A DNA stretch of 64,000 nt from Theionarchaea archaeon. GTDB lineage: Archaea > Methanobacteriota_B > Thermococci > Methanofastidiosales > SZ-28-30. The stretch lies in assembly GCA_018992685.1 (NCBI GenBank), contig JACVGT010000008.1, positions 1 through 64,000 of the forward strand, in the 5' to 3' direction. The translations under genes and the position numbers were made by a program. Below, piece by piece: positions 1-3,022 of the stretch; position 1 is the stretch's first letter, and the number at the start of each line of letters is the position of its first letter. The notes beneath the pieces are model-generated. The model was not told where the DNA came from. It worked only from the letters and a program-made list of their open reading frames with translations, and made no database searches.

Positions 1-1
1 C

Positions 2-583
2 TGGGTCGCCACCTGCTATTTGACGTCCTACTTGAACCTGTTTGAGGATGGTCTGGTGATAGACTGTGGGACCAATTCCACAGATATTGTCCCTGTATTG
101 AACTCTCGACCCATGACTCTCGATGACAATGATCAAGGCTACACTCGAACCAGAACTGGTGAACTACTGTGGTCAGGATTGTATTTCACGCACGTTCCAT
201 CTATCTCTCATGCCATTCTCTTGGGTGATAATGAATATCAGACCAATCCCTCCACCCGTGCCATGAGCTTCGACATATATGTTGTCCTGGACATGGTCAA
301 ATCAGAAGATGTCTTGGCAGAGTTTAATACGAAAGCAGAATACAGACGTCTGATTTCACCTGAAGCCTCTGGAAGAAGGATCATGGACAGTGTGTCGGCA
401 GACAGCGAATTACTGGGTGCTGATGATGCTCGGAAAATTGCCTGCTATCTGGCAGAAAAACAGAGAGAGAAGACGCTGAAAGCCATCAAGAATGTTCTGG
501 CTGCCACAAAGAAAAAATATAAAACTGATCTGAAAACAGTCGCCCTTGCAGGTGCTGTGAAACATCTCTGGGGTGTGCGTTGA
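2..583 (+). CDS. Hydantoinase/oxoprolinase (ASKHA) family protein, MfnF / H4MPT-linked C1 pathway-like; 5' partial, possibly 3' truncated
   Basis: Frame is open from the window edge (WVATCYL...). Motifs LVIDCGTNSTDIVP and R...GELLWSG resemble the DxGSTTTDIIP / RL..GELVY.G motifs of this family. Confidence 0.6.
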   Translation, partial: WVATCYLTSYLNLFEDGLVIDCGTNSTDIVPVLNSRPMTLDDNDQGYTRTRTGELLWSGLYFTHVPSISHAILLGDNEYQTNPSTRAMSFDIYVVLDMVKSEDVLAEFNTKAEYRRLISPEASGRRIMDSVSADSELLGADDARKIACYLAEKQREKTLKAIKNVLAATKKKYKTDLKTVALAGAVKHLWGVR

Positions 584-625
584 TAGGGTTAGAAGCTTTT
601 AGGAACCCATGAGATTCTGTCTCAG

Positions 626-896
626 CTATCCCTCTCGCTCACCGCTTTCCAGAGGCAACGATATGCTTTTTTCAACTGCTGCAACTACATTTTTGCGGAA
701 CTCCCCCCTTGGTAGATGTGTGGTGTCTCTGTGGAGTGAGAAGCTGAAATCCTGAATGTTCTTGTCCCTCACCACGTGCTCCCTGAAATCGTCCTGGCGA
801 GAATCCATTCACTCTGCTGCAGATTTTGATCAAGGGACTTTCTACACGAACTGTGACATGTTGGTTGAGAGTCTCCAGGGGAAGACTCACATCCAC
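626..896 (-). pseudogene. Probable frameshifted ORF downstream of the terpene cyclase-like gene
   Basis: GTG at 896 lies 2 nt after the upstream stop. Frame VDVSLPLETLNQHVTVRVESPLIKICSRV appears to continue after a +1 shift near 809 as MDSRQDDFREHVVRDK...EREG*. Confidence 0.35.
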
Positions 897-898
897 AG

Positions 899-2308
899 TC
901 AGTCCCAGCTCCTCTTCAGCAGAGAACGGAAGGCAGACACGATCAGCGCGCGCCTGTGTATTCCGTAGTCAATCAATCCAACGAAATGTACACCATCAAA
1001 TGTGGGACCAAATGAGGCAGAGTGGCACTGTGCCAGAAATCTATCGAGGGCTCTGTTCCGGCATTCAACGAAATCTGAGTATTCAGAGAAGGCTCTCGCA
1101 AGAAGAGTACATTCAACAATATTCAGCTCCCCTTCCAGCTGGTTCTCGAGCCATTCAAGGGCATGGAAAGCAGGATCGAGATATCCATTCCGTCCCAGCA
1201 GGAGGGCAATTTCCACCGTTGCATAGATATTGCTGTTCCACCAGGTGGTAGTCCAGTGGCCATCTTTCTCCTGGGCTTCCAGAAGGTAAGAGATTCCCTT
1301 TTCGAAGCCCGGTCCGCACATCTTGTTCTGTTCAAGGGCTTCCAGTACGTGACATGTCACATCATTGTCTGATGTTCTGGCTCTCCTCACCACAGATTCC
1401 CGAGGGACAACTCCCGTTATCTGAGGGAATGCACCCCATCCTCCATTTTCATGTTGAAGAGCCCCAAGGTTCTTGCATGCTGTAGATGCCAAGCGGGGTT
1501 CATAGGGCGCCAGAGCATAACAGGCCATTGCGGTGTCATCAATATCAGGTACGGCAAACCGAGAAAATCCCCACCAGCAATTAGGGTGCATGCATTCCTT
1601 CAGCGTTTCCACCAGTCGCCACTGAAGTGCAGTCTCACGTGTTCTGAGTGCGTATGAAGCTTCCCAGACTTCTCCGTTTGCTGCAGCCCAAGAACCATCA
1701 GGCAACTGTTCTCTCTTGAGCCATTCTTGAACATTATGTGCGGGCTCAATTCCTTCTTCCCTGAGTGCAATGGCTGAAAGAGCAGTAATAGTAGTATCAT
1801 CTGTCCAGGAACCATCTTCTTGCTGGAGATCTCCGAGCATTCTGAGAATCTGAGGCATCTTTTCTCCCTTTATGGTACAGAATAGAGCTGCACAGGCCAG
1901 ATGAAGGGGGAGAGTATAACAGTCATCATAAGAACACGAATAATCCAGTTGTTTTTCGATCTCGTCCAGAGAAGGCATCTTCTCCTGTACCTGTGCCCGT
2001 ATTGGAAAATCACAGACATCTTCCAGAATTTCAAAGCAGGCAAACATGAGGGAAGAAGATCCTGAAAACGTTGTGTGGACTTCTGTCAAGGGGAGTCCTC
2101 TTGCATGCTGCTCAATCCACCGGTGTGCTCTTTCAGAAGTCCTCCCAAGAGCTGTATGAGCCAGTATGGTTGCCACAGGATGAGAACTGAGTGTACTGCA
2201 GCGACCTTCAATTCTCGGCGAGATATTTTGTTCCACCAGGAAGGTTAATTCCTGTCTCGCGTGGTCGTATATCCGTTTTATTTCTGGAAGCAGCTCATTT
2301 TTCCCCAT
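899..2308 (-). CDS. Class II terpene cyclase-like protein (squalene-hopene cyclase / prenyltransferase repeat family)
   Basis: QW-type repeats LQQEDGSW, EQLPDGSW, LQHENGGW and AQEKDGHW; catalytic-type motif VPDIDDTA; SD GGAGG upstream. Confidence 0.8.
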   Translation of the reverse strand: MGKNELLPEIKRIYDHARQELTFLVEQNISPRIEGRCSTLSSHPVATILAHTALGRTSERAHRWIEQHARGLPLTEVHTTFSGSSSLMFACFEILEDVCDFPIRAQVQEKMPSLDEIEKQLDYSCSYDDCYTLPLHLACAALFCTIKGEKMPQILRMLGDLQQEDGSWTDDTTITALSAIALREEGIEPAHNVQEWLKREQLPDGSWAAANGEVWEASYALRTRETALQWRLVETLKECMHPNCWWGFSRFAVPDIDDTAMACYALAPYEPRLASTACKNLGALQHENGGWGAFPQITGVVPRESVVRRARTSDNDVTCHVLEALEQNKMCGPGFEKGISYLLEAQEKDGHWTTTWWNSNIYATVEIALLLGRNGYLDPAFHALEWLENQLEGELNIVECTLLARAFSEYSDFVECRNRALDRFLAQCHSASFGPTFDGVHFVGLIDYGIHRRALIVSAFRSLLKRSWD

Positions 2309-2320
2309 CGGAAACCCTCC

Positions 2321-2374
2321 TCAGAACAGAGCATTTTCAGCATTGATGGCAGCACTGACAAGGTGTGTTACCAT
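2321..2374 (-). CDS. 17-aa micro-ORF MVTHLVSAAINAENALF
   Basis: ATG preceded by a strong SD (AAGGAGGTG). Its TGA overlaps the SD of the next gene, which starts 12 nt downstream. Confidence 0.5.
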   Translation of the reverse strand: MVTHLVSAAINAENALF

Positions 2375-2473: not shown

Positions 2474-3022
2474 TTACATACATTGCTCCAGAACCTTCCT
2501 GAGAAGATCTTCCAGAATATCTGTCCCCACAACCATCCGTTCATATGACAGCCCAAGCCTCCGGGCAATCTCCAGACATCCCTCACCAGAACCCGTCCCT
2601 GTGTCCAGAAACACACACCTCACATAATGCTTGAAATATGTTTCCTTTTCCTCTTCCAGATGTAATGCCTCTGTCAAGTTCTCGAATTGATCACAAAACC
2701 GAGGCAGCAGAAAATATGTACCTGGTTCTTCCTTCAATAATTGAGAGAACAGGTCACCAGCCACCATCTCATAACAGGTTTCACATCCTACCCGCACTGC
2801 ACCATGCTCTCTGCACACGTCATCTATGCCTTCAAAACAATTCCCGTACACCACCACAACACAATCATCAGTAGTCCCCTCCAGCTCTTTCACCAGCCTC
2901 TCCTTTAGCATGTCAGGATTGAGATGCAGCTTTCCGGGCAGGACAGCAACATCAATGTCCAGCCCTTCAACAACTTTTCTGACCTCACCCTCTAGAATTC
3001 CACATGCCACTATGGTAGCCAT
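2474..3022 (-). CDS. DUF1638 domain protein (corrinoid methyltransferase-associated)
   Basis: IVACGILEGE, LH..P..L, VVYGNC, and C.....G....LLKEEPGTYFL pattern. Confidence 0.8.
   Translation of the reverse strand: MATIVACGILEGEVRKVVEGLDIDVAVLPGKLHLNPDMLKERLVKELEGTTDDCVVVVYGNCFEGIDDVCREHGAVRVGCETCYEMVAGDLFSQLLKEEPGTYFLLPRFCDQFENLTEALHLEEEKETYFKHYVRCVFLDTGTGSGEGCLEIARRLGLSYERMVVGTDILEDLLRKVLEQCM

Follow-up and report, generated by a model that had tools for sequence, protein, structure and literature searches.

A compact, predicted class II terpene cyclase of Theionarchaea and its possible partnership with an MfnF-like enzyme

Several described systems bear on the gene reported here, a class II terpene cyclase-like gene (protein P0001) in the first 64,000 nucleotides of contig JACVGT010000008.1 (C9 below) of the Theionarchaea archaeon assembly GCA_018992685.1, a stretch that we refer to as the window. 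Triterpene cyclases are reported to be absent from Archaea (PMC7306690). Active diterpenoid cyclases have been shown in Asgard archaea, with Theionarchaea homologues listed (McShea et al., bioRxiv 2025.02.07.637177), and archaeal MstE-like sequences are described in PMC12414744. In the drimenyl-diphosphate synthase of Streptomyces showdoensis (SsDMS), the Mg/diphosphate ligands are R132, K133, E169 and R501 (PMC12232559). Prenyl transfer and class II cyclisation are combined on a ribosomal peptide by NctPC/ChrPC (review PMC13290415), and MfnF joins a diphosphate-activated unit to the phenol of tyrosine or tyramine, displacing diphosphate (PMC8141765). No paper pairing Theionarchaea with terpene, or with biosynthetic gene clusters, was found in the literature searched, which lacks most subscription journals. 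The first-pass annotation of this DNA, made from its letters, held such cyclases to be unrecognised in archaea, a view now outdated by the Asgard enzymes, which are of another family.

Judged by its sequence and structure model, the protein looks like a class II terpene cyclase of compact, two-domain build and is predicted to be catalytically intact. Only cyclase families match it, with Pfam SQHop_cyclase_C aligning at residues 247–370 (E 1.9e-13). In the model (predicted local distance difference test score 88.9) an alpha/alpha-toroid beta domain and a gamma domain are both kept, the entire chain forming a cyclase fold that superposes as a whole on known cyclases, with the acid motif beginning a helix (residues 256–266). 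The closest fold is that of SsDMS (PDB 7xq4, 8zg5). With the squalene-hopene cyclase (SHC) of A. acidocaldarius (PDB 1gsz/2sqc) the protein shares PDxDDTA, equivalents of His451, Trp489 and Tyr495, and QW repeats, and its DIDD (nucleotides 1535–1546) aligns to SHC residues 374–377. Among 24 aligned homologues D255 and D257 are present in all and D258 in 23, as are H320, W356 and Y/F362 in all 24, the histidine being found also in 14/14 proteins of the sister clade. We take SHC His451, to which His320 corresponds, to be the partner of the general acid. The intact DxDD motif and the four QW repeats had both been picked out by the first-pass annotation, DIDD lying where it placed the motif; when the protein was shuffled 20,000 times, four QW repeats arose in none of the shuffles (maximum three, once) and D-x-DDTA in five. 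Cyclase activity is predicted with high confidence from these sequence and model features.

The protein is nevertheless distinct from both of its closest solved relatives. It is 160 residues shorter than the A. acidocaldarius enzyme, lies outside the SHC clade and scores below the family cut-offs (46.4 against 431.1 for TIGR01507, with NCBIfam squalene-cyclase models matching far under theirs); the earlier remark that it is shorter than a two-domain SHC holds for length, but two domains are present in the model. With SsDMS-like (DMS-2) enzymes it has in common the compact beta-gamma architecture and the length range (450–550 amino acids in PMC12414744), yet SsDMS itself is 16–18% identical and has a different gene context. 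By predicted fold and residues the protein is a member of the superfamily that falls outside every characterised family tested.

A homologue search over 5.8 billion proteins, in which 8000 candidates were scored, yielded a family of 27 proteins including the query (44–100% identity), beyond which the matches drop to SHCs at E of about 1e-10. Every organism-named family member (ten clusters looked up) is from Theionarchaea, and the queries used detected no copy of the cyclase in three genomes of the same taxonomic family or in 129 further genomes of the phylum; its distribution is patchy. The closest outside proteins (520–555 amino acids) come from Candidatus Methanoperedens, Desulfosporosinus, Desulfitobacterium, Thermincola and Gracilibacter, and form the sister group with support of 98/99 (32-row IQ-TREE) and SH 93 (82-row FastTree). 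Relative to this sister clade, about 45 residues of the N-terminal domain and the late QW repeats have been deleted, and the Theionarchaea stem branch is very long (1.72 changes per column). Approximately unbiased (AU) tests on the 32-row LG+G4 tree rejected a joint clade with four canonical SHC rows (p=0.00012). The sequence tree, in which archaea and Bacillota share the clade, makes horizontal exchange between them evident but gives no direction. The sister gene occurs in 3 of 53 genomes of the Methanoperedens family, a fourth match being a different, SHC-side protein.

The archaeal halimadienyl-diphosphate cyclases of McShea et al., taken with M. tuberculosis Rv3377c and its adenosyl-transferase logic, offer a likeness in class, in acting on geranylgeranyl diphosphate (GGPP) and in cyclising before transfer. 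That family differs in its N-terminal YDTAW, which is present in a second class II cyclase of this genome (L009, C8:126839–128317) and absent from P0001, the two proteins aligning pairwise with 29 bits. L009 is of the diterpenoid copalyl/halimadienyl-diphosphate type, with YDTAW and PDLDDTA, is followed by a haloacid dehalogenase (HAD) hydrolase gene, has a relative in genome G002 (L114) and probably belongs to the family of McShea et al. A joint clade of the P0001 family with L009 and L114 stays compatible with the AU test (p=0.298, two long branches), and the free tree separates them. Both Theionarchaea entries in the supplement of PMC12414744 start with YDTAW and are of the L009 type; the text and supplement of that paper, as far as searched, mention neither Methanoperedens nor Desulfosporosinus, nor any of three accessions of the P0001 family. 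The new elements are an uncharacterised clade and its context of MfnF-like, RiPP recognition element (RRE) and peptide genes, and archaeal origin alone is no longer surprising.

The gene is real and archaeal. Bacterial mis-assembly, raised as a concern by the first-pass annotation, is rejected because contigs from other sequencing runs join the cyclase to both neighbours (one covers 559–2176, another 2236–2614) at depths near those of adjacent DNA (45.7 against 43.5–49 in run X3; 11.1 against 6.4–7.9 in run X5), homologues are present in several named Theionarchaea assemblies, the GC fraction (0.492) matches that of five neighbour genes (0.475–0.535), with a third-position value of 0.455 that is the lowest of the six, and the source genome (3.03 Mb, 91% complete) has a contamination of 0.71%. 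The start is led by a Shine-Dalgarno (SD) sequence, as had been read; three relatives are likewise SD-led, and the feature therefore says little.

Since the genome encodes three polyprenyl synthases, GGPP should be available. It has eight UbiA matches and, at 91% completeness, no match to the squalene/phytoene synthase family (SQS_PSY, PF00494); on account of this and of the AU result squalene, among the substrates first suggested, is unlikely. A substrate derived from GGPP is probable.

Flanking sequence is available at four distinct Theionarchaea loci, namely the window, L012, L013 and the 99% identical pair L014/L015. An MfnF-like gene lies within 2 kb of the cyclase in three of the four, and in two of these three an RRE and a short peptide are encoded as well. 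In L012 the order is radical S-adenosylmethionine (SAM) enzyme, cyclase, 26-codon open reading frame (ORF), PqqD, MfnF-like gene, two radical SAM genes and a B12-radical SAM gene; in L013 it is 30-codon ORF, radical SAM, PqqD, MfnF-like, ABC-2 permease, ATPase and cyclase; and in L015 ATP-binding cassette (ABC) genes precede the cyclase, with which the contig ends. Stand-alone PqqD (RRE) genes and ABC exporters thus each occur in two of the four. Candidate peptides contain tyrosine in three of four cases and tryptophan in none, and the L012 peptide starts with a Y-x-x-P pattern similar to that of RRE-binding leaders. With 21 members, the MfnF-like proteins make up a group in which every named sequence is from Theionarchaea. 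MfnF (NF040623, TIGR03123) is their best family and fold match, the structure model matching PDB 3c0b/3cet, the former of which we take to be an MfnF orthologue. They differ from MfnF in scoring far under the NF040623 cut-off (108 and 54 bits against 520), in the company they keep, as MfnB (PF04476) was not found in any of the four family genomes (84–91% complete), and in sitting behind an RRE gene. No UbiA gene is near any of the four cyclase loci, whereas the Methanoperedens sister gene has a UbiA-type neighbour in 4/4 loci.

As the MfnF family joins a diphosphate-activated unit to a phenol and the sister clade has UbiA in the same slot, we favour a reading in which GGPP is cyclised and the terpenyl unit is passed by the MfnF-like enzyme to an acceptor, although we put its chances somewhat short of even; a functional partnership of the two enzymes we consider slightly better than even. 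In such a pathway D257, primed by H320, would likely protonate the terminal alkene of the geranylgeranyl (C20) chain, and aromatic residues would steer a short cyclisation cascade. The MfnF-like enzyme would then displace diphosphate and attach the ring-bearing unit to its acceptor, most likely tyrosine of a co-encoded ribosomal peptide, and radical SAM enzymes and an ABC-2 system might tailor and export the product. A peptide acceptor is a tentative assignment, rather doubtful at present, though the neighbourhood favours the prenylated small molecule or peptide that the first-pass annotation had listed among its options. Peptide tyrosine is the likeliest acceptor, and the full proposal, Theionarchaea terpene-peptide hybrids, made in a way not yet described, in which a cyclic diterpenyl group from GGPP is ether-linked by an RRE-guided MfnF-type (ASKHA-fold) enzyme to tyrosine of a radical-SAM-modified ribosomal peptide, is unlikely to be correct in every part.

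A bicyclic diterpenyl diphosphate remains allylic and displaceable, and a drimenyl one from farnesyl diphosphate (FPP) would not. Because of this, and because the closest fold retains the diphosphate, cyclisation before transfer is slightly favoured over the reverse order, that of NctPC/ChrPC, which is almost equally probable. The NctPC/ChrPC proteins, as described in PMC13290415, are fused, with ABBA- or isoprenyl diphosphate synthase-type transferases and tryptophan acceptors, the NctPC cyclase being an MstE-like single domain. The Theionarchaea cyclase, by contrast, has two domains and stands alone, its candidate transferase is of MfnF-like type and no tryptophan occurs in the peptides. Were the MfnF-like partner a terpenyl transferase, peptide lipidation would gain a new fold and Archaea a new class of natural product; were the peptide proposal true, the products would be the first archaeal terpenylated RiPPs (ribosomally synthesised and post-translationally modified peptides), made by a new class of peptide prenyltransferase. 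Cyclic terpenoids also serve widely as bacterial or eukaryotic biomarkers, and a clade that reaches from Theionarchaea and Methanoperedens to cultured Desulfosporosinus might be a source of novel ring skeletons in anoxic sediments.

A number of observations weigh against cyclisation followed by transfer to a peptide. Independent loci with flanks are few (n=4), a single species seems to carry both L012 and L013 as paralogous clusters, and in L014/L015 the 8.9 kb upstream of the cyclase holds no MfnF-like gene, the downstream side being cut. The four candidate peptides are mutually unrelated, with no homologues among the sequences compared, and the 17-mer adjoining the cyclase has no tyrosine; none of the 18 PqqD matches in the genome is on C9, C33 or C39, the contigs of the reconstructed locus. 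Radical SAM genes are non-orthologous between loci (about 30% identity), and with 15% of the genome no more than 5 kb from a radical-SAM-like ORF, co-location of the cyclase with peptide clusters is partly background. The MfnF-like copy beside the cyclase in the window is degenerate and convergent with it; the scores far under the cut-off mean that the chemistry may differ from that of MfnF, and an ATP-dependent kinase-type role fits the modelled fold too. On the cyclase side, counterparts of the SsDMS diphosphate ligands could not be assigned, the gamma-domain profile giving no usable alignment to SsDMS, and invariant R36, D171 and E213 are no more than candidates. At the bacterial sister loci, a neighbouring transferase is missing in most cases.

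One alternative is a stand-alone, SsDMS-like prenyl-diphosphate cyclase that would convert FPP or GGPP to a bicyclic diphosphate, from which an HAD phosphatase frees the terpene alcohol, with proximity to peptide clusters reflecting shared variable genome regions. SsDMS is the best structural match, the 469 residues fall within the DMS-2 range, an HAD gene lies about 4.5 kb into linked contig C33, biosynthetic partners are missing at most Desulfosporosinus sister loci and radical SAM/RRE clusters abound in the genome; we regard this as an unlikely account nonetheless, given that an MfnF-like gene adjoins in three of the four loci despite deeply diverged partners and that SsDMS is remote by sequence profile (E 0.075, against 3.4e-21 for SHC). 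An MstE-like meroterpenoid or lipid cyclase, acting without any peptide on the prenyl chain of a glycerol-ether lipid or small aromatic compound that the MfnF-like enzyme, or a UbiA whose gene lies elsewhere, would supply, would suit the UbiA neighbours in Methanoperedens, where locus L036 also has a polyprenyl synthase, three radical SAM genes and an ABC-2 exporter but no RRE or peptide gene that could be found, as well as the eight UbiA matches of this genome. The lack of UbiA near the Theionarchaea loci and of a transmembrane segment in the cyclase (maximum hydropathy 1.24) speaks against it, and we hold it to be improbable.

A repurposed toroid, in which the acid serves simple isoprenoid hydration or isomerisation or which is non-catalytic, would accord with the long stem branch, the deletion in the N-terminal domain, the loss of late QW repeats, and the apparent replacement of several C-terminal SHC aromatics (L/I at 445–446; the mapping is uncertain). 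It is hard to reconcile with an acid, partner histidine and pocket aromatics that are invariant over homologues 44–75% identical, and with both domains retained in the model, and is quite improbable. Most improbable is a shortened squalene-hopene-type cyclase making hopanoid-like lipids from squalene: the DxDD motif is canonical and the A. acidocaldarius SHC is the closest solved enzyme by sequence (E 1.8e-8 in single-sequence and 3.4e-21 in profile comparison), but the TIGR01507 score, a length of 469 against 600–800 amino acids, the AU test and the absence of an SQS_PSY match all oppose it.

The window begins within a collapsed repeat (Table 1), a duplicated MfnF-like gene (window 1–638; C33:1–453) that flanks the 3.4-kb contig C39. 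The window start shares 112-bp exact overlaps with both C33 and C39, the start of C39 repeats window 478–562, and the ends of the second copy are on these two contigs; relative to it, the ORF at 20–583 in the degenerate copy has an internal deletion. In other runs, loose contig ends and about 1.4–2-fold depth on the repeat are consistent with duplication, and contig G001:C64 is likewise interrupted within this gene and has the same two radical SAM genes beside it. From the overlaps, the simplest C33-C39-C9 order would be two radical SAM genes, intact MfnF-like gene, 30-codon SD-led ORF, 613-aa radical SAM gene, degenerate MfnF-like gene and cyclase. The 30-codon ORF on C39 may belong to the adjacent radical SAM gene. 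No homologue of the 17-codon ORF was found among the sequences compared, and its variants in other runs comprise two replacement changes and one silent. The genome has 26 short intergenic ORFs with a strong SD, the 17-codon one included, and two of the 26 are in the roughly 6-kb cyclase locus. A link between the cyclase and the DUF1638 gene is doubtful, as a genome of the same genus has DUF1638 beside a helix-turn-helix gene without the cyclase.

Table 1. Features of the cyclase locus in the window.
Feature	Position	Strand	Basis or remark
Class II (beta-gamma) terpene cyclase-like gene (P0001)	899..2308	-	open ORF, 469 aa
PDIDDTA motif, aa 254-260	1529..1549	-	D257 aligns with middle (general-acid) Asp of A. 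acidocaldarius SHC
His320	1349..1351	-	alignment to SHC His451
QW repeat 1, aa 162-168	1805..1825	-	Q-x(2-5)-G-x-W pattern
QW repeat 2, aa 201-207	1688..1708	-	Q-x(2-5)-G-x-W pattern
QW repeat 3, aa 285-291	1436..1456	-	Q-x(2-5)-G-x-W pattern
QW repeat 4, aa 346-352	1253..1273	-	Q-x(2-5)-G-x-W pattern
Shine-Dalgarno GAGGAGG of cyclase, 7 nt ahead of ATG, overlapping stop of upstream 17-codon ORF	2316..2322	-	sequence
17-codon ORF immediately upstream of cyclase, with strong SD; putative peptide gene or remnant of a gene	2321..2374	-	no Tyr or Trp
Degenerate MfnF-like (ASKHA/hydantoinase-A) gene copy, cut by contig start	1..638	+	TIGR03123 E 1.1e-18
DUF1638 gene upstream of cyclase	2474..3022	-	Pfam E 1.2e-24

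Some further genes and loci are of note. Two DxDD cyclases of 595 and 569 amino acids, at L129:850-2637 (genome G186, of the window's class) and L132:492-2201 (G083, Methanoperedens family), branch towards the SHCs in the tree (95/94), and both, by inspection, have a UbiA-looking neighbour; with the genomes as binned, they are at odds with the reported archaeal absence of such enzymes. The single-domain toroid proteins L010 (C1:28641-29660) and L011 (C17) match SQHop_cyclase_C, with no DxDD seen in L010, and two similar 28-codon SD-led ORFs lie at C5:1680 and C6:6118 without radical SAM neighbours. The sister cyclase is widespread in cultured Desulfosporosinus and Desulfitobacterium, mostly in a fixed non-biosynthetic context; eight Desulfosporosinus-type loci (L039–L091) have a methyltransferase, often plus ABC-2 genes. 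A record titled Ruminiclostridium (L035) holds a cluster about 95% identical to that of Methanoperedens nitroreducens L036 and is likely a mis-binned contig. A cluster that recurs in Chloroflexota (L092–L104) combines genes for a polyprenyl synthase, an SHC-like cyclase, a UbiA-type protein, ketopantoate-reductase-like and DegV-like proteins and an acyltransferase, and has the look of a pathway to cyclic lipids that is yet to be characterised.
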